Positions 11,903 to 36,300 of a stretch of DNA of 64,000 nucleotides are shown here, piece after piece. The translations under genes were made by a program, and so were the position numbers. The stretch's first letter is position 1. The number at the start of each line of letters is the position of its first letter. Below the pieces are notes generated by a model that did not search any database, was not told the DNA's origin, and worked only from the letters and a program-made list of their open reading frames with translations. The stretch is from a virus (taxonomy: Duplodnaviria > Heunggongvirae > Uroviricota > Caudoviricetes): IMG/VR virus record IMGVR_UViG_3300035544_000169. One strand, 5' to 3'.

Positions 11903-13417
11903 ATGGCTAAAAATTACAGAAACTACTACAGTCGCTCGGTTGTTTTGATTGGAGAGTCTCAAAAAGGAGAGATTCTTGAGCCTGTATTTATAGAATCAAT
12001 AGAGGATGCATACGATATTTTTGGTGGTGGAGAGCTTGTAGAATCTGCCAGAGAGATTATAAATGCCGGCACTGAGTATATCTACTTAATCAGAATAGAC
12101 CCCGAAAACGAATACGAAAGATACTACGATTTAATAAATGCATACTTTGTTTTAGAGAGCATGGGAGATGTAGATGTCATCCTGCCTCTTGGAATATCGC
12201 TTACTGATAAGATAGTTGAATATCCAAACATCTTTAATTACAAAGAGGAATTTTCCTACAACGGAGACCTGATGTTTGAAACAGAGAGAATAATGGAGTC
12301 AATCAACTACGTCAAAGTAAAAGGAGAAAAAACAAAGTTTTACTCTTTAAGAGATAGCGGAGTAAATGGTAACTTTGATGCTGTTATTTTAAGCAGAGAG
12401 GACTTTGATTTAGATAGAGGAGACACCATAACTATAGATTACAACTGTATAAAGAATCTAGAGATTGAGTTTGAAATTTTGAAGTTTTTAAACGGAAGAA
12501 TAGAAAATAGTATAACCCTTAATAAAAACATCAATGTTGATATTAAAAACAGTGTTCTAACAGAAAAGAAGGCCAAAGAGTTCTTCTACGGTGATGAGGA
12601 GGCTGTTTATGTAGCAAGATGTAAGAATGAAGCCTTTAATGTCTACACTCAAAAAGATGGAGAAGGTCTTGTTTATGCTGAATTTGACTACCAAAAATAT
12701 ATCTCAGATAACACAGAGTATAAATATTTTGTAGAGAAGCTGGCTCAAATTGCAGAGCTTACAAATTCGGTTGGGGTTATTAAAAAATCAAGCAAAGATT
12801 ACCTAGCTATGTCAGAAAATATACTTGATATTAAAGCAATGCTAAACGAAAAAAGAAACTACGGCAAAAATGTAGTTGCAGTAGCATCTGATTGTTTATA
12901 CCGTATCAACTCAAGCAGCTATAAAACAGGTTACGAGAAAGCTTTTACAGGCATTCTTGGAAGCTTCCCAAGCAGCATAAGTCCTACAAACAAAAACTCA
13001 GAGATTGTTGTTGAAGTAAAGGATGAGTTTAGCAACTTAGAAATTAAAAAGCTGACAGAGGATGGTTATACTTTCGCCTACAACTCAATCAGGAATGGTA
13101 TTGTCCCTTACAAAGCTGTTACATTATCGGAGACTACAGAATTTAAGTCGCTAAAAAATGTGAGAGTGGTTAAAGAAGTGAAAAAAAGACTGAAGGAAAT
13201 AACTGATGTCTTCATCGGCAGGGGCAACATTAATATACAGTCAAAGCTTTACTCAAAATCAGTAGAGCTTCTGGATAACCTTGTGATAGAGGGAAAGATT
13301 GATGATTACAGCTTCAAGATAGTAAATGCAACAACAAGCTATATCAAAACAGAAGTTGAGTTAAAGCTTATCAATGAAGTAAAAACTCTCAAAGCAGGAA
13401 TCGTATCCGGGAGTTAA
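11903..13417 (+). CDS. Tail-sheath-like paralog (short)
   Basis: N-terminal VVLIGESQKGEILEPVFI..AYDIFGGGELV and C-terminal SPTNK..LTEDGYT..FKSLKNVRVVKEV parallel the termini of the sheath at 14029. Confidence 0.75.
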   Translation: MAKNYRNYYSRSVVLIGESQKGEILEPVFIESIEDAYDIFGGGELVESAREIINAGTEYIYLIRIDPENEYERYYDLINAYFVLESMGDVDVILPLGISLTDKIVEYPNIFNYKEEFSYNGDLMFETERIMESINYVKVKGEKTKFYSLRDSGVNGNFDAVILSREDFDLDRGDTITIDYNCIKNLEIEFEILKFLNGRIENSITLNKNINVDIKNSVLTEKKAKEFFYGDEEAVYVARCKNEAFNVYTQKDGEGLVYAEFDYQKYISDNTEYKYFVEKLAQIAELTNSVGVIKKSSKDYLAMSENILDIKAMLNEKRNYGKNVVAVASDCLYRINSSSYKTGYEKAFTGILGSFPSSISPTNKNSEIVVEVKDEFSNLEIKKLTEDGYTFAYNSIRNGIVPYKAVTLSETTEFKSLKNVRVVKEVKKRLKEITDVFIGRGNINIQSKLYSKSVELLDNLVIEGKIDDYSFKIVNATTSYIKTEVELKLINEVKTLKAGIVSGS

Positions 13418-17497: not shown

Positions 17498-18607
17498 ATG
17501 CCTACTTATCAAAGTGGATATGCAGGTACTGATATAGTCTGTGTTTTTAAATTTCCTGACTTTGTAAAAAAAGAACCCTTAGTTTTTGGAGAACTTGCAA
17601 CAATAAGCTTTAGTACCTACAGGGATAAATTTCCTGTAAGAGCACTGGGCCATGTTAATGCAAAGGGCTATACAAAAGCTGGCAGAACAGTAGCCGGGTC
17701 TTTAATCTTTACGATGTTTGAAAAGTCAATAATAAATCAAATTGTAGAAGAAATATATTCAAAAAAGTTTAATATTATACCTGATGAACTGCCTGCATTT
17801 TCAATAGATATAACAATGGCTAATGAGTACGGCAACAAAACCCATATAGCATTATTTGGTGTTGAGATTGTAGAGGGAAATCAGGTCATGACAGTTGATA
17901 ATCTGCAGACAAATGAGCAGTATTCTTTCGTTGCTCAAGATATTGTTTTGGTAGACTCCGAAAAAAAGCCTGGAGTTTTATCCTATTATAACCCGGTAAC
18001 AGAAAGCAGAGAGGTCAATATCGATAAGGATATGACACTAAGAGAGTTGGAAAAAGAGTTCCACTACACATATCAGGTACCAGAAAATCAAAAAATTGAA
18101 GAAACAAAAGTAGCATCAAAAGTTAATGAGAACACTCCGTATGATGAAATTAGAGCAAGCAATGAAAAGAGAATAGAAGAGTTTATAGGAAATGAAGGTT
18201 TGGCAACAGTACTTGCTGCTATTAACTATGCAGAGGGTGACATAAACCATCAAAACCCTGAAAAAAGGGCCTCAGTTCCTTACGGAACAACAGGCTTTAA
18301 ATCTAACGGATATAAATTTGTCCATCAGTCAAACAATGACTTTTTTAATAATGTGGTCGACAACCTAGACTTAAAAGATAATACAAATGCCTGGTTTGCC
18401 GCAAGCTCTGCAACTACTGTAACTGACTGGTGGGAAGGTTGGCTTGAAAACAACAACAGAAGCTTGAGTACCAACTTTAATGATTTGAGCGAGTCAGAAC
18501 AGAAAGATTTTCTTTATTATCTTGGAAGCAATTACGCTCCTGGAGATGCTCACCATCTTAATGAGAACTGGTATCCAAACGTTACTAAATATATTTATGG
18601 GAGCTGA
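17498..18607 (+). CDS. Tube-fold paralog (tube initiator-like) fused to C-terminal lysozyme-like domain
   Basis: N-terminus aligns with tube (YAGTDIVCVF..RTVAGSLIF..PAFSIDI); C-terminus has LAAINYAEG and YAPGDAHHLNENWYPNV. Confidence 0.7.
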   Translation: MPTYQSGYAGTDIVCVFKFPDFVKKEPLVFGELATISFSTYRDKFPVRALGHVNAKGYTKAGRTVAGSLIFTMFEKSIINQIVEEIYSKKFNIIPDELPAFSIDITMANEYGNKTHIALFGVEIVEGNQVMTVDNLQTNEQYSFVAQDIVLVDSEKKPGVLSYYNPVTESREVNIDKDMTLRELEKEFHYTYQVPENQKIEETKVASKVNENTPYDEIRASNEKRIEEFIGNEGLATVLAAINYAEGDINHQNPEKRASVPYGTTGFKSNGYKFVHQSNNDFFNNVVDNLDLKDNTNAWFAASSATTVTDWWEGWLENNNRSLSTNFNDLSESEQKDFLYYLGSNYAPGDAHHLNENWYPNVTKYIYGS

Positions 18608-20415: not shown

Positions 20416-23400
20416 ATGGCTGCAAACAGATACATAGAGAGGTATAAAAAAGGCCTCCAGCAAAGAGAAGAAAAAAGACAGTCTAAAATGGCCTGGTCTA
20501 AAACAAATAAATTTCTAACAGGTGCAGCCGCAATTACAGCAGGTGCATTTGCAGCCCACACACTTCACCCCAAAGGTATAATAGGAGCTTTAGAGAGTGT
20601 AGCAAAGCCCACAAATGCTGCCTTTGGAGCCTTCAAAAGCACAATGGATAGATATGTGTCAGGTTCCGGGCACGGAGTTTTAAAGGGTGTTGATACAGCT
20701 ATAAACGCTGTTGATGTATTTAATAATCCAAAGGGTGCAGTAGACCATTTTAGAAGTACATATAAAAGTATTGCAAAAAGAACAGACGACTTACATATAG
20801 ATATTTTAAGAAAACAGAAAACAAATGTTATTGACGGAATTAAAAAGGCATTAAAAAGAGATGCTATCAGCACTCAGGCAAATAAGAATTTAAATAAATT
20901 TATCGAAGATAATGAAGGCGACTTAGCCAAAATAGCCTCTGATTTTCAGAAAAAAAACCAGTACAGACTTTCAAAGCTAAGTTCTGGCGATAAAAAAGAA
21001 GTTAACTATGCACTTGCAAAATTAGACTCATTTAATGAAGCTAATAAAGAAATTAGAGATAGTGCACAAAAAATGATATTTGACAGTATATCAGGGGCTT
21101 CAGAGGCCAGACCAAAGAATGTAGATAATATTCAGGCAGATGCCTTAAAGAAAATGATGGATGAGATTGTAGAAAACCAGCAGTCCCAGAGTTCATTTAT
21201 AAAGAAAAAGTTTAATAATATTTTTGGATACAAAAACGCAACGGTGGATGACCTTTTAAATTATGGTGACGACTTTTTAGATGATGAGAGCAGAAAGTTT
21301 TTAAACACTTTAAAGATAAACCACGGTGCTGACTTTAAAAAGTTTGTAGTAGATGACAGCCTATACATGTACAAAGGTAAGGTTGTTGATTCCAGAAACT
21401 TCAAAAAGCTTGGCAGAAATATTCGCTCAGGATTTTCTGGTGGTATTTTAGGTCACTTAACTTACCAGAGAGACTTAATGGCCATGAATGATTTCTCTAA
21501 GAGAGCTGGAACACTGATTCGTTCAGGCTACAATGTACCAACACTTGAAGGCTATGGAGTTTTAGGAAAAGACGGAGTTTTAAAAGAGTCATTAATTTCT
21601 GTTGGAGATAACATATACAGACTAAATGATATGTCAAAACCTCTGGCTGAAGGCTTCCACCTAGCTTCAGGAAGGTACGGCTCTACTAAGAGATTAGTGT
21701 CAAGTATGTCTGGAGTTAACGCTCCTGACTGGAGTAATGAAAGGGCATACAATTGGCTTTTAGATGTAGGGGGCAAGAGACAGCCGGGGCTTTTAACAAA
21801 GTTTAAATCTATTTTTACAAAATCTAAAGACCCACTATATTTCAAAAATGAAATGAACAGGCTCTTTACAGTAACAGAAGATATGGCTCAAAAAATACAG
21901 TCCGGCACAGCATTATCTGTTCTACCGGAAATAGATTACAGAATGATGAAAGACCTAGAACAGTATATGAGACATCAATCATCAGGCTTTGGTCATGAGA
22001 TGTTAGAAAAGGTCCTTCGTGATTTAGATGGTACAGAAATCAGCTCAAAACTAAAGGGATTAAAATTTGATACAGAAGATGACCTTGTTGAATCATATAT
22101 TAAAGTTACAAAAGAGCATCTAGGTAAACAAGGCGCTAAGATGCCAGATGATACATCTCTTAGGGCAAGGGCTTATAATATTCTTAATACATCAACTCAG
22201 AGAAAAAATAAAAGAATATTTGCCGGAAACAAACTGAACGAAGGTAAAGACAGGCTCTTAAGAGATATCTCAGAGAAGGTAACTAATCTAAGGGGTAGTG
22301 ACAGAACCCTAGAGATTGCAGAATCAATGTATAAAAATAAGGAGATATCAGGGGCCCAATTTGTTGAAATAAATAAATCAGTTGCAAGCTTTAAAATAAG
22401 CGGTTCTATGGACGGCTCATCATTTGATGGAGCTGAAATCACTAAGATTCTAGCAGGCAAGAAAGACCCTTATGTAAGGCTTGCTATTGAAGATTCACTA
22501 AAAGAAACACACCCTGCTTTTGGCTTCGGAAGGGTTAAGGAATTCCAAGAAAACTTCCACGGAGATGTACTTCCGGTAAAGAAGTTCAACCCTAAGATTT
22601 TAAACGACTGGAAGTCAGTTATAACCGGCGGACGAAATGACATGTCCAAAGTTAATAAGGGAACTCTTTTAACTTACGGTATGATGCACAGACTAAATGA
22701 TATGGTAAGGCATTTTGATTTTATGCCTCTTGCTATGTCAGATGACAGTATGGGCTCACCTTTATCAACATTTGGCAACATTATGGCTAAAAGAGTTATG
22801 CCGATTTACGCTGGTGTTACAGCTTTAAAATATACAAGCGATTACTGGTCTGAAATATCAGGTAGTGGATACACACTAGAACAGCACAAAGAAAGAACAA
22901 AGGCAAATGCAACCTTAAGACTATCAAAGTTTAAAGATGCAACAGGCCTTACAAGTGCTTTCAAATTTTTTGATAGGGTAACTCCGGGAAATGAAGGTAT
23001 AAAGGCAAGTGTTAATAAGCTTCCTTTCATGGGACCTTTAGCTCCTTTAACAATAGGTATGGAAGCCCTAAATTCTGTCGGAACATTCAGCGGCAGAACT
23101 GAAAAAGAGTGGGTAGATTACTTCAATACAGGAGAGGACCCGGTCAGAAAGGGTAGGTACTGGATATTAGGTTCAACTCCATGGATGGGTGAAAGTATAG
23201 ACCACTACGAACCAAATAGCTATAGACAGGCTATGAGTCAGTGGGAATATACAGATACGGTTTACGGCTCAAGAGAAAATTACTGGGCTCACAGCTGGAT
23301 GCCTACTCCAACAGAACCTCTTGCACCAGTTAAACGCTTCGTGACGGACAGGTACTGGTTTGAAAAGATGCACTTAAAAGACAGACCATACCCTCTAACA

Positions 23401-26241
23401 GGAGAAATGTTTGACCCTAATACACCGTGGGGCACACTCTTAAATCCAACAATAGGCAGGATATTAAAACCACAAATTAAACTGTCTGCAGGTGCAACAG
23501 ATGAAGACTTAGAAAGAATAGAGAAAAATAATGCTTATGCCAAAGATGTAATAGCCAGATTTTCAGGTGGAGATTTGCAGCTTTCAACCTATATACCTAA
23601 ATATACAATGTCAACAAATGTTGGCGTTGCCACAGGTGGAGGAAGAATAGGTTCGGGTAATGTCATGGTAAATGGTGTTGCAGGCAATAAGGCAAATTCA
23701 AATGCAGTTGGTGTTCAAGGTGGTGGTCCGGGAGGTTCAGGAGCTGCTATTAGGCTTACTGAAAACCCTGAAAGCAGTGGTCTTGTAGTAAACGGCCAGA
23801 ACTACTCACTAAAAGATTTAAAGAATATAAACCAATCAATTATAGATAAATCAGGTAAGATAAGCAGGATAAACAAAAAGAACATTTTAAATACAGGATT
23901 TACAATGTCATATTACGAGCCGAGAGAAGAGGGCGAACTTGCTTTAGATGTGCAAAGCCCAACTGATATCGGCTACAGTATGGAAAGAACATTAGACATC
24001 TTCAAGGATATCACAGGTGCAAGAGGATTCTTAGCTTCTATGGTAACTGGAGGAGACGATTACGGTGAAGGTCAGGCTGTTTTAGCGACAGCATCTGATG
24101 CTTACGCTGCATCATCAAGGTTCTGGGATACAGGGCTTGGTGGCCGTGGTGGAGAGCTTTCAGAGATTTTCAGAAGATTTATCAACAAAAGACCTGGATT
24201 ATATAAGGTAATAAACGACATACCAAATACAATGCCCGGCTGGATGCCTGATAGGTTCCGCACTGGAGACCCTTATACAGAAGTAAACCGCGGCGAAATA
24301 AGGCTCCCAGGAGAAGCTTACGAGTCAATGAATAAGCTCCACCCAGATGAGTATGGAAGGTATGGAGCAGTTGATAGAGCAGCCATCTTAGCTGATATAG
24401 CACCATATTCACAGGAATATAAGCTTTGGTCTAAAATAGCTTCAGAACAGAATCTCTCACAGGAGGCCAAAGAGTTCTTAGCTCAGGCTAAGGAACAAAA
24501 AGAAGAGGCAAACAAAAAATATCATATGACACCATATAAGTTTTTGGGTCAGGATATAGAGAGAGAATCAGCTATTGTAGAGAAGTTTTTAGACTCCAGC
24601 CGCTTCACAGTTAAAGGTTCAGACAGAATATACCGCCTTGCAGGTGTTAACACCAACTTCAATGCAGAGACCGAAGAGGGCAAAAACACCCTAAACATAT
24701 TAGAACAGACAATGATGCCTGGAAGCGAAATAACACTTCTAGCATCAAAAGACAGCAACCCCAACGCCTCAACTCCAGCCGTTGTCTACAGTCAGGACTC
24801 AAATGTAAATAGAAGGCTTTTAGACAGCGGAGTTCAGGCCAAAGAAGAAGATGGGGCTATTGATACTTATGTAAACTTAGGCGTAGGAGGAAGGGCTTTA
24901 GGAAGGATATGGGAAGGAGTAGCACACGCCCCAATCCCTATAGTCCATAATAAATTCTTCAATGTACGCTCACCTATGGAACACTACAAAGACTATCAAG
25001 TTTACGGCAAAGAATGGCAGTCATGGAACGAGCCAGTTGACGACCTTTTAGTACCGTCATTCCAGAGTGCCTGGGCCAGAAATCCTTTCTGGGCTACATT
25101 ATCTGGTGCTACAGCAGGAGCTATAACAGGACTTCTGCTTGGAGGTCCCGGAGTTAGAAAGGCAATGAGTGGCTTCGGTGCGGTAGCTGCAGGTGTCGGT
25201 TCTATTGCTCGCTCACAGTACGAGTTGGAGACGGGTAAGGCGTGGATACCGGAAAGAAGAGAAGAAGAAAGAAAGATATGGGAATACTACGACCTCTTAA
25301 AGTTTGTTAAAAATAAGAGGCTATATAATAAATATGTAGACGTAGCTAAAAAAGAAGAAAATGTTGATGTTGAAAAGATAATAAGTGAAATGGAAGAGAT
25401 TGACGAAAGGCTAAAAAAGAAAGAAGAAATGCTTGAAGGCTTTTCAAAACACTTACTAAGATACGGCATCAGTAAAGAAGACACTGTCCAAAAACGAATA
25501 AACTCAGAGGGTAGGGTCGAATACAATTTAGTCACAGAAAAAGAGTTTATAGAATCAAAAAGAAAAGAAATACTTCAAGAATTAAGGGATACAAAAGCAG
25601 AAGAAGTACTTGTTGGCTTAGGCCCTTATGCAAGAATGGCGGTTAAATACAGACAGGAATACCGCTCTACACTATTTGGACTTGATGGAAGTTCAACTTT
25701 CCAGCAGATGTTTTCTGCTTTTCCAAGTAAGGATAGGGAATATTTACAGCATTTCTCTAAGGTTACAGACGAAAAGGAAAGAGAAGAAATACTAAAAATT
25801 GTTCCTGACAACCAGAAGAGAGCTTACAAAATTCTATGGGGTATGGAAACAGAAAAAGAATCTCTAATAGATATGTTCGGAGAGTATGCACTGCCAGATG
25901 AAAATTGGTTTGGCTGGAGGGAAGGGGCAGACCTTGAAGATTCAATGATAAAACTCATTGAAAATAATGGTTATGACCCTAAAGATTTCGGACTCTGGAA
26001 GGATTACACTGTAGAGGAAGAGCTAACACCAGCTCCAGTTGAGTATGGTAGGCGTTTCGACAGAAAGTCATCCGGATTTATCAGAACAAGATTAGAAGAA
26101 GTATTAACAGATTATGATATCAGAGATGTGGATATTAAAATAACTCCAAGAGAAGATAACAGTATAAATATAAATTTCGATATGGTACAGGATGTAACAG
26201 GAAAAATACAGCTTGAAATACAGAGAGCACTGGGGGGCTAG
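20416..26241 (+). CDS. Giant tape-measure-like/ejection protein with hydrophobic segments and degenerate SNase domain
   Basis: 1941 aa directly after chaperones; hydrophobic FLTGAAAITAGAFAA and FWATLSGATAGAITGLLLGG; SNase-like stretch at about 24565-24840. Confidence 0.7.
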   Translation: MAANRYIERYKKGLQQREEKRQSKMAWSKTNKFLTGAAAITAGAFAAHTLHPKGIIGALESVAKPTNAAFGAFKSTMDRYVSGSGHGVLKGVDTAINAVDVFNNPKGAVDHFRSTYKSIAKRTDDLHIDILRKQKTNVIDGIKKALKRDAISTQANKNLNKFIEDNEGDLAKIASDFQKKNQYRLSKLSSGDKKEVNYALAKLDSFNEANKEIRDSAQKMIFDSISGASEARPKNVDNIQADALKKMMDEIVENQQSQSSFIKKKFNNIFGYKNATVDDLLNYGDDFLDDESRKFLNTLKINHGADFKKFVVDDSLYMYKGKVVDSRNFKKLGRNIRSGFSGGILGHLTYQRDLMAMNDFSKRAGTLIRSGYNVPTLEGYGVLGKDGVLKESLISVGDNIYRLNDMSKPLAEGFHLASGRYGSTKRLVSSMSGVNAPDWSNERAYNWLLDVGGKRQPGLLTKFKSIFTKSKDPLYFKNEMNRLFTVTEDMAQKIQSGTALSVLPEIDYRMMKDLEQYMRHQSSGFGHEMLEKVLRDLDGTEISSKLKGLKFDTEDDLVESYIKVTKEHLGKQGAKMPDDTSLRARAYNILNTSTQRKNKRIFAGNKLNEGKDRLLRDISEKVTNLRGSDRTLEIAESMYKNKEISGAQFVEINKSVASFKISGSMDGSSFDGAEITKILAGKKDPYVRLAIEDSLKETHPAFGFGRVKEFQENFHGDVLPVKKFNPKILNDWKSVITGGRNDMSKVNKGTLLTYGMMHRLNDMVRHFDFMPLAMSDDSMGSPLSTFGNIMAKRVMPIYAGVTALKYTSDYWSEISGSGYTLEQHKERTKANATLRLSKFKDATGLTSAFKFFDRVTPGNEGIKASVNKLPFMGPLAPLTIGMEALNSVGTFSGRTEKEWVDYFNTGEDPVRKGRYWILGSTPWMGESIDHYEPNSYRQAMSQWEYTDTVYGSRENYWAHSWMPTPTEPLAPVKRFVTDRYWFEKMHLKDRPYPLTGEMFDPNTPWGTLLNPTIGRILKPQIKLSAGATDEDLERIEKNNAYAKDVIARFSGGDLQLSTYIPKYTMSTNVGVATGGGRIGSGNVMVNGVAGNKANSNAVGVQGGGPGGSGAAIRLTENPESSGLVVNGQNYSLKDLKNINQSIIDKSGKISRINKKNILNTGFTMSYYEPREEGELALDVQSPTDIGYSMERTLDIFKDITGARGFLASMVTGGDDYGEGQAVLATASDAYAASSRFWDTGLGGRGGELSEIFRRFINKRPGLYKVINDIPNTMPGWMPDRFRTGDPYTEVNRGEIRLPGEAYESMNKLHPDEYGRYGAVDRAAILADIAPYSQEYKLWSKIASEQNLSQEAKEFLAQAKEQKEEANKKYHMTPYKFLGQDIERESAIVEKFLDSSRFTVKGSDRIYRLAGVNTNFNAETEEGKNTLNILEQTMMPGSEITLLASKDSNPNASTPAVVYSQDSNVNRRLLDSGVQAKEEDGAIDTYVNLGVGGRALGRIWEGVAHAPIPIVHNKFFNVRSPMEHYKDYQVYGKEWQSWNEPVDDLLVPSFQSAWARNPFWATLSGATAGAITGLLLGGPGVRKAMSGFGAVAAGVGSIARSQYELETGKAWIPERREEERKIWEYYDLLKFVKNKRLYNKYVDVAKKEENVDVEKIISEMEEIDERLKKKEEMLEGFSKHLLRYGISKEDTVQKRINSEGRVEYNLVTEKEFIESKRKEILQELRDTKAEEVLVGLGPYARMAVKYRQEYRSTLFGLDGSSTFQQMFSAFPSKDREYLQHFSKVTDEKEREEILKIVPDNQKRAYKILWGMETEKESLIDMFGEYALPDENWFGWREGADLEDSMIKLIENNGYDPKDFGLWKDYTVEEELTPAPVEYGRRFDRKSSGFIRTRLEEVLTDYDIRDVDIKITPREDNSININFDMVQDVTGKIQLEIQRALGG

Positions 26242-26244
26242 TAA

Positions 26245-29200
26245 ATGTACGATTTTGATAACATGCCGGCAGTCTCGTCGGATTACAAAGAAGAAATGTA
26301 TAATAAATACGGTTTAAAGGTTACAAATAGGGTCTCTGACCCTCAGCCTTCCTTTCTCTTTCAAGTAAGCAGTCAAAGAAAGGCTAAGGCAAAGCTTGAT
26401 AAAGCTGCCAATAAAGCCGTTCAGTATTCGCACAACTTTGAAGAGATAAATGCAATATATAATGACCTTGGTAAAATAAAAAATGCCATGACAGAAAATG
26501 GTGTTAAAAGAGGAACACTTGATATTTTCAAGGATGTAAATGCAGTAACTTACGGCAGAAACCCACATAGAGCTATTAGGAACTGGCAGAAGGCTATCAA
26601 CACGAACTCAAAAATAATTGGTTTCGATATAGAGAGTTTAGGAGATATGAATGAAGGTAATATTTTTACACCGACAGAAATCTCCTTCTACTCTGCCACA
26701 ATGAACGGTGATGAGCTTTCTAAAAGAGCCTTAGAGCGTTCATTTATTGTAGCACCAAATAGAGCTTCTGTTGATAATATCAACGAGCTATTTGATAAAG
26801 TACAGGCTTTTTACGAAAACGGCAGAACTCCAATGCTCAGCGACTCCGAAAGAAGGACTCTCGGAGATTTAATCAAATACTCAAACGGTGCAGAGTTTGT
26901 ACAGAAAAATTCTATGACAGAACTAGGAAAAGCTTCTAATATGTACAAACAGTTTGTTACTGATGGAGGTCAGCTTAAAAGATTAAGCTCTGCAAGTTCA
27001 GGTAAAAAGATGCTGGCCCTAGCAAGAGAGGGTTTGGGCAACTTACAAAAATATGGTAAAGATGCAAGTAGTGTAGCTCAAAACTTAAGCTACTATCTTG
27101 CCGAACAGAATGCAAATTCAAATGCCTTCTTTATGGGTCACAATATAGAAAATTTTGATAATATAGGCCTGACAAAATTCATGCAGGCTAACGGCTTTGA
27201 TAACGGATTTAAACCAAAACAGTATATAGATACACTGGATTTAGCAAACGCCTTTTATTCCACACCGCTTGACCTGCAGAAATTAAGCAGTGTAGATACA
27301 GGGCAGTTAACAAGACTTAACTCAGGTCATTTAAAAATGGAGAACCTGACCAAAGTTATGGGTTTTGGAAACTATACTCACTCAGCAGCTGATGATACAA
27401 GAAAAGCTTTTAACGTAGTCTCAAACTTATTTTTCAGCCAAGAGGGCCTCGACCACATAAATAAAAACATCTTATCTAGTGGTGGAGATTTTTCAAAGAA
27501 CTTTAATATAAGCTCCCTAAAACCCGGAGACGAGCTGTTTTCTACAGCAGGGGCAATGGATACAGGTAAAGGTCCATTGAGTTTTGTTACGGCATTCAAT
27601 GACGGCAAAGAAGTAGTAGATGGAAGCAAATTTTACATAAGTTCACACACAAAATACAGATTTGTAGGAAGTTTTAGGAATAAAGACTCGGTCGGAGTTA
27701 AGCTGCAGAATGCTATGACAGGGGAAAATGTCTATGTCAATAAGTCAAACGAGAAGGAATTAAGACAGTTTATCTATTCCAAATTTGACAATGCTGCAAA
27801 GTATTCAAATACCGATATGCAGAGAATGTATATGAATACCAGAAACGATATCGCTCGTTCTAAGTTCAGACAGATGACAAACAATATCAGCTTTAAAAAC
27901 TACAAAAACTTACAGGCAACATTAAAGGCCTATAACTTAGAAAAAGCACAGGGAAGAAGTCTTTTAAATAACGAACTTGATGAAATATTCTCATATACAG
28001 ATAAAAGCGGCTCTAAAATTATAAGGGGCAACTGGAAAGAAAACTACAGAAGAATGAGGGGCAGACTTACAAGTGATGCTCCTATACTAGACAAGCTTGT
28101 TAAGGAAGTAGAAGCACTGCATGGTGGAGATAAAGAAAACCCAAACTACTGGCCGGTGCAAAAAAGACACGCAGCAGTTGTAAATGCCTATCAGGAAATG
28201 CAAAAAGATTTTGGAAAAAATAAAGATATTATAAACCTTAAAAGCAACAAGGCTTACGGAATAGACCTTCTGGGGCCAGATGGTAGAAACACAAGAATCT
28301 CACTTGCGAGAAAATCAAATGCAAGACGTGACTTAAGAAGACTATTTAACTATACAGAGTCAACAGCAGGAAGAAACTTCAAAACAGCTGACGGATTTTT
28401 TATTGAAGTTTTAGACAGCGTAAAAGACCATGCAAGTCAGTACCAGAAGAATATGGCCAACAAAGATTATGAGGGCTTTATGTACAGGCTTGACGAAATT
28501 ATAAGACCTATGGCTAAAAGTCAGGACAATGCCTTCACCCAGATAAATGCACTTTCAGACCTACTGGTTGATTATAGAGATAAAATACCGGGACTTAAAA
28601 AAAGCGTGATGGAAGTTGAGGGACTTGGAGCAAGAAATGCTTTCACAACCCAAAAGATGATGGATAATGTGGATACATATTTAAGAAAAGGTTTAGACTA
28701 TGCTAGTGGAATAACCATCAATCACGGCTTTGCTAAGGGTCTTTCAGGTGGAGCTAACAACAGTGTTTTAACTACTGTAAGGGCTTTAGATGAAGCTTTG
28801 CAGAAAAACTATATGGCACTGGGAGTTAAAAAAGAATTCGTTTCAAATATACCTACAATGGAAAGCTCGCTAAATAGCACCATACGCAAATTTGGGACAG
28901 CGTTCTCAAGCAAAGGAGATATCGACTTAGGCTTTGAGCTCTTCAACACAGGTACGGTAGAAAAGCCGCAGGTATCAATGGCTATTTTCAAGCAGGGCTC
29001 AGATGATGTGCTCACACTTGATGCATTAAAAGCAAATAAAAATGCTGCTATAATAGATATACCTCTGGTTAATGCAGACCAGTATATTCATTACGGAAAC
29101 CAGAAAAAAATATCACCACTTGCACTCCTTTATAGGGATAAATTCAGTGCAGGAGCCGATATAAAAACAGGAACCTCTTTCAGCTACATGATGCATGAGC

Positions 29201-32200
29201 TTAACGGAGAGGCCAACAGTATGATTAAGGCAGCTCAGGAAGGCGACTTTAGAAGAATAGAAATGATAGCAAACGGTAAGATACAAAAATCTTTAGGCTA
29301 TCTCTCGGGCTCAAACAAGTATGTAAGAGACGCAGAGAAGATGTATTCTTCAACAGCAGAAGCCGACTTTCTTAAAAAAGGATATGTGCTATTTAGAGGT
29401 GTCTTTGAAAATCAAGGCGAACAGGTAGGGCTTGATGGTGAAACATTGTACCCATCTAAAAAGTTTAACATGTTTGCTGATGGCTCAGTTCAAAAAATGA
29501 TTAAAAATAAATTAGGAATTGATGCATCCTTAGAATCGACAAGAGGTGCACACGCAGTAAATCAGTTCTTTTTAAGCTCAATCGAAAACAGAAATTTTGT
29601 TAACTTCGGGATGTACAACTCTCCCGGTCGTGACAACATGATACAGATGAGAAATAAAAGAACACTTTCTAAAAAGGCTATAGAGTCAATACAGGACAAT
29701 ATAAATAAAGCTAAGGGTTATTCAGGACTCTCTATGGACCCCTTACTTATCACACAGTCCGAACAGTTTTTAAGAGATACTGATAATGCTTTTGCTAAAT
29801 ATCCAGGCGTTAATGTCAGCATAGCAAATGTTGATGAGCTTGAGGGAATAGAGAAGCTAAAAAATGCCTTTGATAAAAGCGACAAATACACTATGGAAGG
29901 TGTTTTTGGTAAATCTCCAGCTAACTTCCCTTCTTTCTGGGAAAACCAGGCTATTGTATCTCAAAGTTTTGCAGACTCGCTACATTCAGTAAACTCATAT
30001 ACAAAAGACTACAAGCTGTCTGATTTAGATGAAGGCTTTATTAATAAAGTTAAACGTTCACTTAAAGATGGCGGCTCAGGTTACAGAATGGGTTACATGG
30101 AGCAGATGGGTCCTGACGAGATATTTAAAAGGGTATCCAGAAAAGATGGGGTTGAACACTTCATTACAGGATTCAACATCAATGACGGCAAGATAAGCTT
30201 CAAGTTCGAAGAGAACTTCAGCACAAGGGCTGGGGTAACCAAACTATTTTTGGCTTCAGAGAAGGTTACTGTCAGAAATATTGTGCCTGATGAAATTATG
30301 AAGGCAGCATTCGGCGAAGGCGTTCATGTTGCAGGTAATATAAACCACGCAGGACATCAGGGTTATGGAGAAGTAGCAGAGGGCTTAATCAAAGAGTCGA
30401 TAAATAAAATAAACCATTCAAATATAGATAGACAAATCAAACAGGAAGCTATACAGGAAGTTCAGGATATTGTAGATAGAACCTTTGGTCTGGCAACAAC
30501 AATCAAAGAAGAGGGCAAAACAGGTAGCGGTAAGTTTAGACTTGTAATCAACAACAACAAAGCCGGATTCAAGCACCTGATGGTAGCCGAAGGAGGAATA
30601 GACCAGGCAAATCTAGGTCTTAAAAATATTGACCCAAGAGTTGCCAACGTAGTTAGAAACAAAGGTGCCTTAAGTATCAAAGATTTAAGAACTAACTTAA
30701 ACAACATAAAATCCTTCAACCTAGGATTAAAAGATAATATCTTAAACCTAGAGGCAGTCTTAGCTCAAAACAGTGAAGACATAAACTTCATGTCAGTCGG
30801 AGGCTACGGCAAAAAAGGCGTAAAAGTAGGTCCAAGACATATCGGAGTCATGATGGACAAGGGTTACACAGAATACGCCAGATGGCTAAAAGACTCAGTT
30901 TTAGAAGAAGCAAAACAGGCAAACAGGATTTCATCACTACCTGGAACAAGAGGCTTAAATGGAGCACTTGAAGGCCAATCAAGAGCTATGGAACTGCTTG
31001 CAAGAGCAGCTCGAGGTGAAGGTGCAGTACCAGATGGTTCCAGAATAAATGAATACACAGAAGTTCTAGAAGAGTTAAGCGAGTTAAGAGAAGGTGGAAC
31101 TCAGGGGCAGGAAAAAGGCCTTTTCTCTAAATCGGATTTAACAAAGACAGTTTTTGACCCCGAATACAGAAGAAGAGGGAAAAACGGCCTTTATATTTCA
31201 CTGCCAGAAGAACTTGAGATAGAGTTTGGAAACGAAAAAACAGGAAGAACAAGGGTTAAATTAAACGAAATATTCCTTTCAGATACGGCAATTGAGATGT
31301 CCAAGAAAAAAAATGGAGAAGCCCTTTACTCTTTAGGAGAAATAGGTAGGGCAGAATCAGACATCTTTAATGCGATGAGGGAATATAATACAGCAGTCCA
31401 AAACTCCTCGCAACTTGCTGGAGACCTTTCAGCAAGGGAGGCTAAAGAAAAAGCTTTAAGAAGTATGAAAACAGGTATCAAAAATTACTATAACGCAATC
31501 TTCCATCAGTCTACAAGCTCTCACGGGCAAAAATATAACAGGGCATTATCGGCAAGGTTTAAAGGCTCGGGAAGGCTTAACCTGCAGATTATGTCTCCAG
31601 CTCTAGAAATTGCAGATGAGGTTAATAGAGCAAGCGGCACTACAGAAGAGAAAATATCAAAGGTAGCAAGAAAATTTGATATAGATGAAAAAGTAATAAA
31701 AAAAGCATATGCAGGGGTAAAGGGTGCTGGCTACAAAGGCCTTGACAAATCTAATGCTATTTATATCAGTCGAGATAGAGCAAAAGACATGCTTAAAGGT
31801 TTGGAAAAAACAGACAAAAAACAGTTTGACAATATAATGTCAGGACTTGAAGAAGGTAAAGGAATGCCTGGAATGATGTTCCGCTCACCTGTAATCCATA
31901 CAGAGTCAGCAATACCTGTTGAATACAGAATAGATGATGAGCTTGATTATGATACTGTTAGAATATCATCAACAATGGCAGCTGCTCAATTTGGTGATTC
32001 TGATGGTGACAGGGTATCTTTTGTAATGGCCTATAATAAACAAGGTGTCAGAACAAATGCCAAAAAAATGGAAGAAGAAGTAGCCAGAGTTGCTGATGAA
32101 ATGAGAAACACTTCATACAACTCAAAAGGGCCATGGGTTAAAAGGAATATGGTAGCCCTAGAAAAAGATGTAACTTTAGGTAAGAAGAATTATGTAGATT

Positions 32201-33309
32201 CAGTATTTGAAACAATAGAATCAAATTCAGACTTTAAGGGCAAACTTGATGTCTGGGATACAAGGCAAATGACAAAATCAGAGCTTGAAAATTATGCAAC
32301 AAGGCTTTCTAAAGCTAAACTTACAAATGCAACTTATACAGGTATGATTAATAACCTGACAGATGAAATCAAAAGACTTGGTAAGGGTTATGCAACATCC
32401 GACAAAGAGCTTGTTAATTTTGCTTCTGGGCTTGGATTAATCACTCAGGAAGCTGTATCGGGTAAACACTCAATGACTAAAAAGTCCGGCTCATCAGTAT
32501 CAACAGACCAGATTATAAAATGGGTTAGAGAAGGTAAGTTCAGCAACTTTGAAGGCATGATGGACCTATCACCAGAAGAGATACAGGCGATGAACGATGT
32601 CCACTTTAGAATGAGAAAAGATGCAAATAATCCGCTTGAAAATGTGGCAAACAAGATATTTTTAAGTGAGAAAGTTGCAAGAGAAGTTAACGTTGCAGAT
32701 TATTCCATGATAAAAGATACAATGGTAGATAGTTTAGAAAAAGAAATGGCAAGTGTTTATACAACTGGCCCGGGCAGAAATATCTACAAGGGCAATCAAA
32801 ACTTATCAAAAAATGCTGGTCATATAGCTGAAAACGGAATCAACTATACAGGCAATGCAGCTTCGGAATTTTTAAAGGTAGCAAATACCAAAACTGCAGC
32901 AATTATGTCATCAGAAGTAGCACAGCATAAGGCTTTCGGTCCTATGGCGGCCGCAGGATTAGCTATAGGTGGAGCTATAATGGGTGCTGGAGCTGCAATG
33001 AGCACACAGCCTCTACCTATGGACTACATGAATAATCCGGCAATGAATGCCGTTTCTGGTGCAGGCTCAAGACAGCCCATGATGGATATGAACAGCATCC
33101 AGAATATAGTAAATAATCAGGGTATGGATATCATAATTAATGGAAACACAACAATAGATAAAGATGTAAACGAATTGGCAGGAGTTGTATCACAAAGCGT
33201 AGGTTCTGCAATGAATATACCGGTTAACATAAATGTCAACGCCAGTGATAATCGAGGTTCAATAAACCAAAGCTGGATAGAAGATAGAATTCTTGCTGCA
33301 CTTGAATAG
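26245..33309 (+). CDS. Single-chain two-barrel RNA polymerase (beta and beta' homology) with N-terminal DEDDh 3'-5' exonuclease; probably virion-packaged
   Basis: Exonuclease motifs GFDIES, GHNIENFD, HSAADD; beta motifs in order (NFGMYNSPGRDNMIQ, PGVNVSIA, ENQAIVSQSFA, GVTKLFLASEKVTVRNIVP, GVKVGPRHI); beta' motifs in order (HGQKYNRALSARFKGSGR, FRSPVIH, FGDSDGD, TQEAVSGKH). Confidence 0.88.
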   Translation: MYDFDNMPAVSSDYKEEMYNKYGLKVTNRVSDPQPSFLFQVSSQRKAKAKLDKAANKAVQYSHNFEEINAIYNDLGKIKNAMTENGVKRGTLDIFKDVNAVTYGRNPHRAIRNWQKAINTNSKIIGFDIESLGDMNEGNIFTPTEISFYSATMNGDELSKRALERSFIVAPNRASVDNINELFDKVQAFYENGRTPMLSDSERRTLGDLIKYSNGAEFVQKNSMTELGKASNMYKQFVTDGGQLKRLSSASSGKKMLALAREGLGNLQKYGKDASSVAQNLSYYLAEQNANSNAFFMGHNIENFDNIGLTKFMQANGFDNGFKPKQYIDTLDLANAFYSTPLDLQKLSSVDTGQLTRLNSGHLKMENLTKVMGFGNYTHSAADDTRKAFNVVSNLFFSQEGLDHINKNILSSGGDFSKNFNISSLKPGDELFSTAGAMDTGKGPLSFVTAFNDGKEVVDGSKFYISSHTKYRFVGSFRNKDSVGVKLQNAMTGENVYVNKSNEKELRQFIYSKFDNAAKYSNTDMQRMYMNTRNDIARSKFRQMTNNISFKNYKNLQATLKAYNLEKAQGRSLLNNELDEIFSYTDKSGSKIIRGNWKENYRRMRGRLTSDAPILDKLVKEVEALHGGDKENPNYWPVQKRHAAVVNAYQEMQKDFGKNKDIINLKSNKAYGIDLLGPDGRNTRISLARKSNARRDLRRLFNYTESTAGRNFKTADGFFIEVLDSVKDHASQYQKNMANKDYEGFMYRLDEIIRPMAKSQDNAFTQINALSDLLVDYRDKIPGLKKSVMEVEGLGARNAFTTQKMMDNVDTYLRKGLDYASGITINHGFAKGLSGGANNSVLTTVRALDEALQKNYMALGVKKEFVSNIPTMESSLNSTIRKFGTAFSSKGDIDLGFELFNTGTVEKPQVSMAIFKQGSDDVLTLDALKANKNAAIIDIPLVNADQYIHYGNQKKISPLALLYRDKFSAGADIKTGTSFSYMMHELNGEANSMIKAAQEGDFRRIEMIANGKIQKSLGYLSGSNKYVRDAEKMYSSTAEADFLKKGYVLFRGVFENQGEQVGLDGETLYPSKKFNMFADGSVQKMIKNKLGIDASLESTRGAHAVNQFFLSSIENRNFVNFGMYNSPGRDNMIQMRNKRTLSKKAIESIQDNINKAKGYSGLSMDPLLITQSEQFLRDTDNAFAKYPGVNVSIANVDELEGIEKLKNAFDKSDKYTMEGVFGKSPANFPSFWENQAIVSQSFADSLHSVNSYTKDYKLSDLDEGFINKVKRSLKDGGSGYRMGYMEQMGPDEIFKRVSRKDGVEHFITGFNINDGKISFKFEENFSTRAGVTKLFLASEKVTVRNIVPDEIMKAAFGEGVHVAGNINHAGHQGYGEVAEGLIKESINKINHSNIDRQIKQEAIQEVQDIVDRTFGLATTIKEEGKTGSGKFRLVINNNKAGFKHLMVAEGGIDQANLGLKNIDPRVANVVRNKGALSIKDLRTNLNNIKSFNLGLKDNILNLEAVLAQNSEDINFMSVGGYGKKGVKVGPRHIGVMMDKGYTEYARWLKDSVLEEAKQANRISSLPGTRGLNGALEGQSRAMELLARAARGEGAVPDGSRINEYTEVLEELSELREGGTQGQEKGLFSKSDLTKTVFDPEYRRRGKNGLYISLPEELEIEFGNEKTGRTRVKLNEIFLSDTAIEMSKKKNGEALYSLGEIGRAESDIFNAMREYNTAVQNSSQLAGDLSAREAKEKALRSMKTGIKNYYNAIFHQSTSSHGQKYNRALSARFKGSGRLNLQIMSPALEIADEVNRASGTTEEKISKVARKFDIDEKVIKKAYAGVKGAGYKGLDKSNAIYISRDRAKDMLKGLEKTDKKQFDNIMSGLEEGKGMPGMMFRSPVIHTESAIPVEYRIDDELDYDTVRISSTMAAAQFGDSDGDRVSFVMAYNKQGVRTNAKKMEEEVARVADEMRNTSYNSKGPWVKRNMVALEKDVTLGKKNYVDSVFETIESNSDFKGKLDVWDTRQMTKSELENYATRLSKAKLTNATYTGMINNLTDEIKRLGKGYATSDKELVNFASGLGLITQEAVSGKHSMTKKSGSSVSTDQIIKWVREGKFSNFEGMMDLSPEEIQAMNDVHFRMRKDANNPLENVANKIFLSEKVAREVNVADYSMIKDTMVDSLEKEMASVYTTGPGRNIYKGNQNLSKNAGHIAENGINYTGNAASEFLKVANTKTAAIMSSEVAQHKAFGPMAAAGLAIGGAIMGAGAAMSTQPLPMDYMNNPAMNAVSGAGSRQPMMDMNSIQNIVNNQGMDIIINGNTTIDKDVNELAGVVSQSVGSAMNIPVNINVNASDNRGSINQSWIEDRILAALE

Positions 33310-33320
33310 GGGTGTTTTTT

Positions 33321-36300
33321 ATGGCAAAGTACAATTACGCAACAACTAAAAATATAATAATGAAAGAAAATCTTCAGTCAAAGCCTGTTAAAGCAAAAGT
33401 CGTAAGAGTTCAGGATGGTGACACTATATATGTTACCAGTTCAGACCCTATATTTAAGGGTACTGAAAAAGAATTTGATGGCACTTATTCAATAAGACTC
33501 TCGGGTGTTCAGGCTCCCGAGGGCACATCTTTCTGGGATATGGAAGATGATAAGTCTGGCTTAAGAGATTATGATGATTATAGGTACACAGGTTATGAAG
33601 AAAAAGATGAGTTTTCTGAAGAGTCCTTTCTTTTTATGAAAGACTTACTTTTGGGTAAGGAAGTAATACTTGATTTAAGGACTAAAGAAAACGGGAGCTT
33701 GATAACAGGAAGGTTTTCACGGCCGATAGCAATTATCTTTGCTAAAATGGGAGAAGAATATGTAAATGCCAACGTTTCTCTTTTAACAAACTCTCTCGGG
33801 ACACCTTATTATGTTGAAGCTATGAACTTAAGTGACAGCGAGAAAAAAGAGTGGTCTAACCTATCTATTATAGCAGATATGCTGAAGATGGAAGAAGAAA
33901 CAGAAAAGATTGAAGAGGACTTAGATGAGTTTGTAGGTTCTTTTGACCCTGAAACAAACATCAAAATAGGTGACAGCATTCTTCCGATACCTCCTGAAGC
34001 TATTGTGGTAAACGACATAAATGAAGTCAATCCAACATCAGTCATTCGTGGTGGAAGCACTTTAATGTCCTCAACAGGCCACAGGCAAAAACAGGTACAG
34101 ATGGAGTTTTATTTCGACAGCAACAAAAGAACAAAAGAACTTATAAAGGGAAGAACCTATGAAGGTGACCAGATTAACGGCTTTCCTAAATTAGCTGCCG
34201 GTAAAAGCGCAGTTATCATGCAGGATGGAGAGGAATTTAGACCAGTATATTACATAAACGGATTGAGGCCTTTAATGGCCCAATTTAAATTGACACCTTT
34301 TTTACCTATAGAAAATGAATACCTAAACAAAACTCATGATATCTCAGCTTTAACACTTCAAAACCTATCAATCAGTAATGTTGAGGGATTTCCGGGACTT
34401 GTTAAGGCTACATTAATAGCACTGGAGTTTAATCATGAAGCTTACATAAATATGGTTGGACCTTTTAAAGATGTCTTCGACTGGGGTTTATTTAGATTTT
34501 ACTACCAGAGACTTATAGATGGTACCGGAATAAAGCATAGGGGTACAAAACTACCCTTTTACCAGAGAGACGGAGAGGATTTTTCCTTCTTTACAGTAGA
34601 TAGCTGGTCCTTACAGAAAAGAGAAAACCTTGAAGCTTCACTGGAAGATGTCTTAAGAGAATACCAGATAGACCTTGAAGAAGGCAGTACAGAATACGAA
34701 AAGCTAGTCTTTGAATATGAGGTGTTTACAGAAGCTCTGGAACAGTATGAACTTTTTAATGAGCTAAAGGGAAGTTATAACCTTAATAATGAGGATTCAA
34801 AAAAAGAGCTTTACCTAGAATACATAAGAAAAATTGCTGACAAACAGGAAAGAAGAAATGACAGCTTCAACGATGGGCTCTATTATGAGCCTAATATCCA
34901 CAACGAGCTTGATTTCTTGGAAAATGGAAGACTTAGCCGCTACGATAATCTAATTGAAGACCTTGTTAAAATTGAAGGCTATGATGGTGACTATTTCGAT
35001 ATAGCTTTAAGAAGCGAGAAAAATAAAGAATTTTTAATCAACTACTTAAAGCAAAAAGAAGAAGATAATTTAATACCAACAGAACTCGATTTAGTTAAGT
35101 CAACTGAAAAAGAAATCGAGAGGATAAAAGAGGCTAATTCTTTTAATATTAAAATCTCAAGAGACAGCTTTTTATATATCAAAGACAGAGTAATAGCCGG
35201 TGGTAAAGACCTCTTAAAAGAAAGAGAAGAAGCTGTATCTATGACCGACAATCAGATGGATGATTACGAGTGGAACAAACATTATTACAGCGACCTTCAT
35301 TTAAACCAAATAAATGTATCGATGTCAAACGGCGTAAATACCGTAAAGTTAAATATGCACACAAAACCAACTCATCAGTATTTAGGCTCAAAAGATATAG
35401 TTATTTCAACTAGCTTTGTCACAGATAACGAACATACATTAGAGAGCATTAACTTTCTTGCATCTCATACTAGTGCTATGGAGCTTAGATACAAAAAAGT
35501 TTTAGATAATCCGGTAATGAAAGTCCAAAACAATATAGTTGATATGTTTGGATTAGATGGTGCTTATATTAAAAATATAGAGACAAATACTGTACCTTCT
35601 ATGCCGGGATTATTCCAAATTGAGATTTCATTTTTCGGCTATATTGGTGCGCCAGGAGACAAAGACTCTCTATCACTTCAGTACCGTTCGGAGCTTGGTG
35701 TCGACGGAAAAATGGGTCACGATAATTTAACAGACTATTTCAATATGAAAGAGAGACTTAAATACATCAACCTTTATCCGGACCTTGAGCTTCCTAGATA
35801 TTCAGAGCTTCCATTAAGGCACGAACTATTTGATGCTAATGATGACAGCTTTGTAGACCCTGATTTTTATGCTCTTGATGTGCCAAAAGTATTTTCAGAA
35901 GATGTAATCAGGGCTTTATATGATGAAGATGATGCAGTAATTATCGGTAGAGACACAGAGGGTAATGCTGTTAGAGCTTTAGTTGATGATAAAGGTAATA
36001 TAAATTTAATTGACTCTAATATTCAAAGCGAATACAAAAGAGATTCCAAGCCAACACTTGCAGATATAGCATACGAAAAAGGAGATGTAGGCTACAATGA
36101 GTTAAGCGAGTTTATGGATAATAGAAGTTTGGATAGAAGCAACATGTCTTTTGTATCAGACAAAGAGCTTAAAAGCTACCTTGCCTCTGAAGATAAAATG
36201 GTAAGTAATGTTAAACATAAAAAAATAAAGATTAGTGACTTCTGGGAGTCATATGTTATTAAATGGCTTGATAGCACTGTTCAGAAAGATATTAGTGAAA

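Follow-up and report, generated by a model that had tools for sequence, protein, structure and literature searches.

Why a tailed phage should carry a DnaQ-type 3'-5' exonuclease and an RNA polymerase (RNAP) in one polypeptide chain is the question raised by P0001, a giant protein encoded in a 64,000-nucleotide stretch of Caudoviricetes DNA (IMG/VR record IMGVR_UViG_3300035544_000169), referred to here in its full length as the window. An initial annotation of this DNA had proposed that an intact DEDDh exonuclease of the DnaQ family precedes the polymerase, with the motifs GFDIES (D128, E130), GHNIENFD (D305) and HSAADD (H379, D384) in the span 26605-27420. The motifs occur exactly at these positions, the span corresponding to amino acids (aa) 121-392, and both the identity of the exonuclease domain and its fusion with an RNAP can be regarded as nearly certain on the basis of profile, fold and conservation evidence.

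The relationship of the N-terminal domain to known exonucleases emerges from the family rather than from the single protein. P0001 alone gave an RNase_T match in Pfam (E 0.081, 13.9 bits) that lies under the cut-off of 24, matches to two PHROGs families described as "DNA polymerase exonuclease subunit" (E about 1e-3), no NCBIfam match and no PDB match by phmmer, and profiles of four sequences found no match in the PDB. PDB matches were gained only with profiles of 44-50 sequences. The 50-sequence profile retrieved the PolC exonuclease domain of T. maritima (2p1j, E 2.3e-8), a TREX1 homologue (9mrc, 5e-6), Exonuclease I (6.5e-6), an archaeal PolB exonuclease domain (3e-5), DnaQ (8h18, 5e-4) and a Cas2-DEDDh fusion (8e-4), with RNase T at only E 0.03, and its alignment brings Exo I, Exo II, the aspartate of the xDTL motif and Exo III into register with the solved DEDDh exonucleases. 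Five of the 50 family members have a Pfam RNase_T match (best E 4.6e-6), the weak tail of an exhaustive family search merges into true RNase_T proteins, and a language-model look-up likewise led to phage DnaQ-like exonucleases.

The AF2 model of the domain, built from four input sequences, has an overall pLDDT of 54 and is confident only for aa 120-330, so that the Exo III helix is supported by the alignment and not by the model. In a wide VIA-align search of 48,161 chains, in which model residues 115-385 were matched, 49 of the best 50 rows listed are DEDD or RNase H-like exonuclease domains, with Z up to 9.0. These include Cap18 (7t2s; Z 9.0, root-mean-square deviation (rmsd) 5.6, 155 residues aligned), the PolC exonuclease domain (2p1j; Z 8.8, rmsd 3.0, 123 aligned), the N-terminal exonuclease of DinG (9II8; Z 8.8) and epsilon (1j53; Z 8.0), and the RNA-acting DEDDh enzymes RNase T, REXO2, 3'hExo and ERI2 match at Z 7-8. 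Foldseek with the same four-sequence model gave no match at E <= 1e-3, its list being led, weakly, by the DEDDh enzymes RNase T, PolC exonuclease, ExoI and the TREX1 homologue Plex9.1.

The D-x-E of Exo I, the aspartate of Exo II and the H-x4-D of Exo III, the pattern that marks the DEDDh subtype, are all found in P0001 in canonical order. In the 50-sequence N-terminal alignment, where the mean column identity is 18%, the only invariant columns are D128, E130, D305, D329, H379 and D384, while N300, E145 and G133 are conserved in at least 96% of the sequences. Invariance of the catalytic residues at such a low overall identity implies selection for catalysis and indicates that the active site works; as read from the sequence, it is a complete two-metal DEDDh site with every catalytic residue intact throughout the family. 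Taken together, the invariant residues, the PolC profile match and the structural matches uphold the assignment made in the initial annotation.

P0001 shares the Exo I-III motifs and the RNase H-like fold with the DnaQ-like DEDDh group (2P1J, 1J53, Exonuclease I, TREX1/2, Cap18 7T2S, DinG 9II8, RNase T) but differs from it in two respects: Exo I is separated from Exo II by a conserved insert some 90-120 aa long, and the domain is joined to an RNAP in a predicted virion protein rather than to a DNA polymerase or helicase. Owing to this helical insert the distance from Exo I to Exo II is about 175 aa (approximately 156-214 aa across all 50 members), about double the usual spacing. The insert itself occurs in all 50 relatives with P171, L209, Y212, G263 and L267 near-invariant, and may be a substrate-binding or docking element.

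The polymerase half of the proposal is likewise sustained by profile and model. Among the 60 PDB matches listed for the core profile are phiKZ gp55 (E 3.5e-7) and Thermus beta' (E 1e-5), and the profile aligns with beta' from switch-2 through NRxPTLH to NADFDGD. In the 44-sequence alignment of aa 1068-2068, T1342, R1880, P1882, D1918, D1920 and D1922 are invariant, K1333 is conserved in at least 90% and K1340 is the majority residue, the family consensus around the two lysines being GxKxxxxGEKxT; the D-x-D-x-D triad is kept in all giant relatives, with a fourth residue other than Gly in five of them. At a mean identity of 17% the core is as conserved as the exonuclease domain. The AF2 model of aa 1068-2068 reaches a pLDDT of 89.8 and a pTM of 0.88, and with it Foldseek returned at least 499 matches at E <= 1e-3, the 50 listed being all beta'-type RNAP subunit chains. 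By VIA-align, model residues 1-489 superpose on beta subunits (Z 13-15, about 290-345 residues aligned, 3.3-3.9 A) and residues ~520-1001 on beta'/Rpb1-type chains (Z 9-10). This unbiased search is headed by the non-virion RNAPs of phiKZ (7ogp_C, Z 15.4) and AR9 (7s00_C, Z 14.5), in each case by the beta-like chain, and beta of E. coli and of plastids also reaches Z about 15, whereas single-chain enzymes score lower (QDE-1, Z 8.7; P74-26 gp62, Z 7.8; P23-45 gp96 (8h2n/8h2m), Z 6.5-6.8) and gp96 is not among the 60 core-profile matches listed. Since phiKZ and AR9 rank above QDE-1 and gp96, the core appears to be a fusion of multisubunit-type beta and beta' halves, not an enzyme of the YonO/QDE-1 type; as modelled, it is a single-chain two-barrel beta-beta' RNAP in which all catalytic residues are kept. 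A complex prediction for the exonuclease (aa 115-400) with the two-barrel core (aa 1227-1937) gave a median score of 0.24 against a mark of 0.32, and says nothing for or against docking of the two.

The pairing is a property of the whole family. When 1.84 billion cluster representatives were searched exhaustively with the profile, 57 proteins were returned at E <= 1e-3, about 47 of them 2,100-2,600 aa long; the aligned giant relatives carry the exonuclease region at or near the N-terminus, and the co-occurrence of the DnaQ-type domain with the two barrels, raised in the initial annotation, extends to both active sites in all of the ~47 full-length relatives. Two short matches that were examined, P0009 and P0026, run off the end of a contig and so are fragments. 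A homologue of the N-terminal domain could be detected in only four of 50,697 phage records, namely the Bacillus phages Edson, vB_BceM_WH1 and vB_BauM_KLEB27-3 and the Moorella phage MTATph1. Family hidden Markov models (HMMs) match all four parts of the protein in KLEB27-3 gp034 (exonuclease 1e-86, middle 2.9e-140, core 4.5e-211, C-terminal end 1.5e-63) and in Edson 0920 (5.9e-71, 2.1e-113, 1.3e-126 and 4.2e-62, respectively), which confirms the complete architecture in these two phages. A tblastn search of the same records with the RNAP core gave nothing, though the HMM matches to Edson and KLEB27-3 are strong; pattern scans found no relative in genome contigs and, in viral contigs, only the source phage's own 33-kb IMG/VR fragment. 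The Corynebacterium protein NCgl1702, a beta::beta' fusion of 2,169 aa (PMC2919709), may be a candidate for membership.

Nor is the architecture already common and annotated. Family members have neither Pfam domains nor names, and the GenBank relatives are labelled "hypothetical" or "structural protein" (depositors chose "virion structural protein" for the WH1 homologue and "structural protein" for that of KLEB27-3). Full-text literature searches found no paper on a DnaQ-type exonuclease fused to a two-barrel RNAP, and none on KLEB27-3, WH1 or MTATph1. A survey of jumbo phages contains no exonuclease-RNAP fusion, and the enzymes that it gives for 0305phi8-36 and Clostridium phage c-st are all YonO-like (PMC7824862).

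In MTATph1 (OR602862.1, 6487-13843) the family gene appears broken. CDS0027 (1,309 aa) has some 830 extra N-terminal residues and an intact DEDDh domain at aa 834-1089 (E 3e-22), and is followed directly by a transposase gene; CDS0031, a separate small open reading frame (ORF), matches only the C-terminal anchor of the family (E 5e-19), and the family HMM found no RNAP core in the whole 176-kb genome. The locus is a natural deletion form associated with an insertion sequence.

The "tape measure" gp146 of Bacillus phage 0305phi8-36 was considered as a family member and rejected, as neither family profile matches the genome of that phage (EF583821.1). It encodes instead a protein resembling YonO and RNA-dependent RNA polymerases (orf99, PF05183, E 1e-20) and no exonuclease-RNAP giant, whereas no PF05183 match was found in Edson or KLEB27-3; in this small sample the YonO-like RNAP and the exonuclease-RNAP giant are mutually exclusive.

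The features of P0001 and of the genes around it are collected in Table 1. The window is given over to the structural module of a large phage with a contractile tail; the G+C content is 34-39%, every large gene lies on the + strand, and neighbouring genes were named by their PHROG matches. P0001 begins 3 nucleotides after the 1,941-aa ORF and ends 2 nucleotides before the 2,391-aa ORF, and occupies the tape-measure slot, with the sheath and tube-like genes upstream and the hub-position ORF directly downstream. The homologous genes of Edson and KLEB27-3 lie in the same slot between giant neighbours, and in the related phage 0305phi8-36 the gene immediately upstream of the giant gp27-like hub gene has been assigned as the tape measure (PMC2147016).

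Table 1. Features of P0001 and neighbouring genes of the structural module (coordinates are those of the window).
Feature	Position	Strand	Basis or remark
Portal gene	3410-5356	+	PHROG match
Major head protein gene	8051-9175	+	PHROG match
Tail sheath genes	11903-13417 and 14029-16677	+	PHROG match
Tube-like gene	17498-18607	+	PHROG match
Giant upstream ORF, 1,941 aa	20416-26241	+	Open frame
P0001, exonuclease-RNAP-tail-anchor fusion gene, 2,354 aa	26245-33309	+	One open frame, translated
N-terminal leader, aa 1-114	26245-26586	+	Conserved among close relatives only; no known fold; AF2 pLDDT < 50
DEDDh (DnaQ/RNase T-type) 3'-5' exonuclease domain, aa ~115-400	26587-27444	+	Profile against PDB, VIA-align, Foldseek
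Exo I, IIGFDIESLG (D128, E130)	26614-26643	+	D and E in 50/50 sequences
Insert of ~90-120 aa between Exo I and Exo II, helices and hairpin	26758-27120	+	AF2 model, alignment
Exo II, FMGHNIENFD (N300, D305)	27130-27159	+	D in 50/50, N in 49/50 sequences
Invariant D329 of the (I/L)DT(L) motif	27229-27231	+	Aligns with YIDTL of PolC exonuclease domain
Exo III, HSAADD (H379, D384)	27379-27396	+	H and D in 50/50 sequences
Middle region, aa 424-1067	27514-29445	+	Family-conserved, mean identity 14%
Beta-subunit-like half of RNAP core, aa 1068-1556	29446-30912	+	VIA-align; first double-psi barrel
K1333 and K1340 in KLFLASEKVT	30241-30270	+	Basic residues of beta-type barrel
Beta'-like half of RNAP core, aa 1557-2068	30913-32448	+	Profile against PDB, Foldseek, VIA-align; contains switch-2-like segment
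R1880-x-P1882	31882-31890	+	R and P invariant
D1918-S-D-G-D1922	31996-32010	+	Three D invariant
Gly/Ala-rich hydrophobic helix, aa 2231-2253	32935-33003	+	Most hydrophobic segment of P0001
Conserved C-terminal domain, aa 2254-2354, and stop codon	33004-33309	+	C-terminal HMM
Hub-position giant ORF, 2,391 aa	33312-40487	+	Open frame

No known domain was detected in the middle region, the profile of aa 424-1088 giving only spurious helical matches in the PDB. The hydrophobic helix lies about 120 aa before the C-terminus of P0001, and in 44 of 47 relatives an equivalent segment precedes the C-terminus by 105-147 aa; the conserved domain that follows it is presumed to be the hub-docking end of a tape-measure-like protein.

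Several neighbouring products also attract attention. The 1,941-aa ORF, for which Pfam gives no match, contains hydrophobic stretches rich in Gly and Ala at aa 33-50 (20512-20565) and aa 1558-1598 (25087-25209); its product could be the actual tape measure or else a second protein that is ejected. A search with the whole hub-position ORF gave no Pfam family at E <= 0.01, so that the N-terminal thermonuclease which had been proposed there (33387-33810) finds no support at this threshold. A 501-aa protein encoded beside the portal gene (1872-3377, +) matches PHROG 284, an SbcD/Mre11-type "exonuclease" (E 2e-34), together with a weak N-terminal HNH-like match, and is a second nuclease of the structural module. 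Lastly, a 1,542-aa ORF (42809-47437, +) shows C-terminal Pfam matches to Ig-like domains of the invasin/Big_1 type (E 6e-7 and 2e-5, both under the curated cut-off) and is probably a fibre or adhesin component.

Each component of P0001 is known, and an injected RNAP fused to a tail protein has a precedent. In Thermus phage P23-45 the virion protein gp96 is a two-barrel RNAP fused to the tape measure (Chaban et al. 2024, PMC10770324; PDB 8H2M/8H2N), which has been proposed to sit at the tape-measure pore and to transcribe the pre-early genes during DNA entry (PMC10770324). The gp96 group (P23-45, P74-26, G20c, TSP4) is the nearest precedent in that it likewise consists of giant tail-slot proteins containing a single-chain two-barrel RNAP with DxDGD and hydrophobic or transmembrane segments, and is presumed to be injected; gp96 differs from P0001 in its length (5,002 aa), its origin from a siphovirus, the position of the RNAP at the N-terminus and the presence of a metallopeptidase, and no exonuclease has been reported in it (PMC10770324). 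The closest cores by profile and fold, those of the phiKZ (7OGP) and AR9 (7S00/7S01) non-virion RNAPs, also have beta and beta' barrels without an alpha or omega scaffold, but each is divided among four or five subunits and neither is a tail protein, whereas in P0001 the halves are fused, with an exonuclease before them and a tail anchor after them. The RNAPs of crAss-like phage phi14:2 (gp66), of N4 (virion RNAP) and of the YonO/QDE-1 class resemble P0001 as phage-borne single-chain enzymes in very large proteins, known or presumed to be delivered together with the genome (PMC10770324, PMC5467207). They differ in that the crAss-like and N4 enzymes are capsid cargo and YonO is non-virion, the N4 enzyme moreover having a T7-like fold instead of two barrels; no exonuclease domain is reported for any of these three groups in the literature searched. 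What is not described in that literature is the P0001 family itself, the fusion of a DnaQ-type exonuclease with a two-barrel RNAP, and its occurrence in contractile-tailed jumbo phages of the Bacillus type.

As candidate functions of the exonuclease the initial annotation had named proofreading or 3' trimming, processing of the entering DNA end, primer handling and removal of defence oligonucleotides. The reading preferred here, tentatively, is that it processes DNA 3' ends at genome entry. By analogy with gp96, P0001 is probably housed in the tail and released into the host before the DNA, C-terminus first. Known tape measures have their C-terminus at the tail tip, an orientation that would leave the N-terminal exonuclease of P0001 head-proximal and last to emerge, adjoining the leading end of the genome. 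The C-terminal helix would insert at the entry pore, the exonuclease would resect the 3' strand of the incoming terminus to provide single-stranded template or promoter DNA for the sigma-less polymerase, and the attached polymerase would start phage transcription without the host RNAP; resection could also expose terminal-repeat DNA for annealing. Three features lean weakly towards DNA 3'-end processing: the best profile matches are DNA exonucleases (PolC exonuclease, TREX1 homologue, ExoI, PolB exonuclease and DnaQ), some 650 aa separate the exonuclease from the polymerase, unlike an integrated editing site, and MTATph1 keeps the exonuclease and the C-terminal anchor without the polymerase. 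That the fusion is a self-sufficient entry machine, in which resection makes the single-stranded promoter or template and the attached RNAP starts transcription at the pore, is doubtful; in this joint form exonuclease and polymerase would be two steps of one reaction, an initiation mode described for no RNAP.

A number of points weigh against DNA-end processing. Both enzymatic activities are predicted, for the whole family, from sequence and fold, and homology cannot tell DNA from RNA substrates, RNase T, REXO2, 3'hExo and ERI2 being equally good structural matches. The strict co-occurrence with the RNAP in one chain argues for a job linked to transcription. The MTATph1 gene, cut by a transposase, may be defunct and not a functional form reduced to the exonuclease. 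The virion location of P0001 and the placement of its N-terminus near the DNA are drawn from gene order and from the tape measures of other phages, and the 1,941-aa ORF with its hydrophobic Gly/Ala segments could be the true ruler, which leaves the assignment of P0001 to that function ambiguous. Finally, 3'-5' resection leaves the strand that has its 5' end at the terminus, a template that would support only transcription towards the genome end.

A lower but appreciable likelihood attaches to a function on RNA, in which the exonuclease would serve a stripped-down RNAP that lacks a factor of the Gre/TFIIS type, either by external proofreading of misincorporated or backtracked 3' ends or by trimming or terminating transcripts. 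This possibility best explains the strict fusion, the exonuclease and the RNAP being always in one chain with both sites invariant, and RNA-acting DEDDh enzymes are among the structural matches, as mentioned above. In coronaviruses, nsp14 ExoN is a DEDDh editor for the RNA polymerase nsp12. Both this pair and the DP2/DP1 pair of archaeal PolD, a two-barrel DNA polymerase with a separate proofreading nuclease (PMC7281927, PMC10770324), would resemble the P0001 pairing in that a polymerase without an adequate editor of its own is accompanied by a dedicated 3'-5' nuclease. They differ from it in that nsp12 is a right-hand polymerase and ExoN a separate protein, and in that the product of PolD is DNA and its nuclease an Mre11-like phosphodiesterase, not a DEDDh enzyme. 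Within the two-barrel RNAPs the single-chain YonO is reported to be devoid of proofreading by RNA cleavage (PMC5467207), which makes an external editor conceivable. On the other hand, high fidelity is of no obvious benefit to a virion RNAP whose task is limited to a few early genes, and nevertheless the exonuclease site is invariant; unrelated sequence of about 650 aa lies between the two modules; by sequence, the closest relatives are exonucleases that act on DNA; and the core is similar to multisubunit RNAPs, in which the polymerase active site itself does the editing.

It is rather unlikely that the exonuclease is an injected counter-defence or host-takeover nuclease that works independently of the polymerase, on targets with free 3' ends such as signalling oligonucleotides, DNA products of retrons or reverse transcriptases, guide strands, or host mRNA or DNA. 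Delivery before phage gene expression, as deduced from the tail position, would suit such a role, and the top structural match, Cap18, is a 3'-5' exonuclease associated with the cyclic-oligonucleotide-based anti-phage signalling system (CBASS), with the Cas2-DEDDh fusion and the DinG N-terminal exonuclease also matching; the MTATph1 locus, too, keeps the exonuclease without the polymerase. But a virion would contain few copies of a tape-measure-like protein, which is little for degradation in bulk; no defence system is directly linked to it; and the strict fusion to the RNAP across ~47 lineages would be left unexplained.

Very improbable is a two-barrel enzyme that is in fact a PolD-like DNA polymerase or primase-like, with the DEDDh domain as its classical proofreader: PolD offers the precedent noted above and DEDDh domains normally accompany DNA polymerases, but RNA polymerases fill the first 17 rows of the fold search and the 50 rows listed contain no PolD chain, the core pairs in the profile alignment with the switch-2, NRxPTLH and NADFDGD region of beta', and the tail-module location suits an injected transcriptase (PMC10770324). 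Equally remote is a catalytically idle domain serving as a DNA-end-binding plug or as a tail assembly or structural module, for inactive exonuclease-like proteins (Exuperantia, Maelstrom, ESRP1) do occur among the structural matches, but 49-50 of the 50 sequences, at 18% identity, retain the five catalytic residues together with N300, E145 and D329.

Phage-injected RNA polymerases are a route by which some viruses escape dependence on host transcription, and few architectures are known (N4, crAss-like, phiKZ/AR9, P23-45). The P0001 family adds a fourth two-barrel solution, a predicted beta-beta' enzyme in a single chain, encoded by contractile-tailed, jumbo-type phages in the tape-measure slot; in this enzyme the polymerase is permanently coupled to a 3'-5' exonuclease of the DNA-polymerase style whose site is kept as strictly as that of the polymerase itself. 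An exonuclease that edits RNA would be without precedent as an external proofreader of a two-barrel RNAP, and one that processes the end of the entering DNA would reveal a new first step of infection. As the full fusion is present in cultured Bacillus phages (KLEB27-3, Edson, WH1), either outcome is directly testable.

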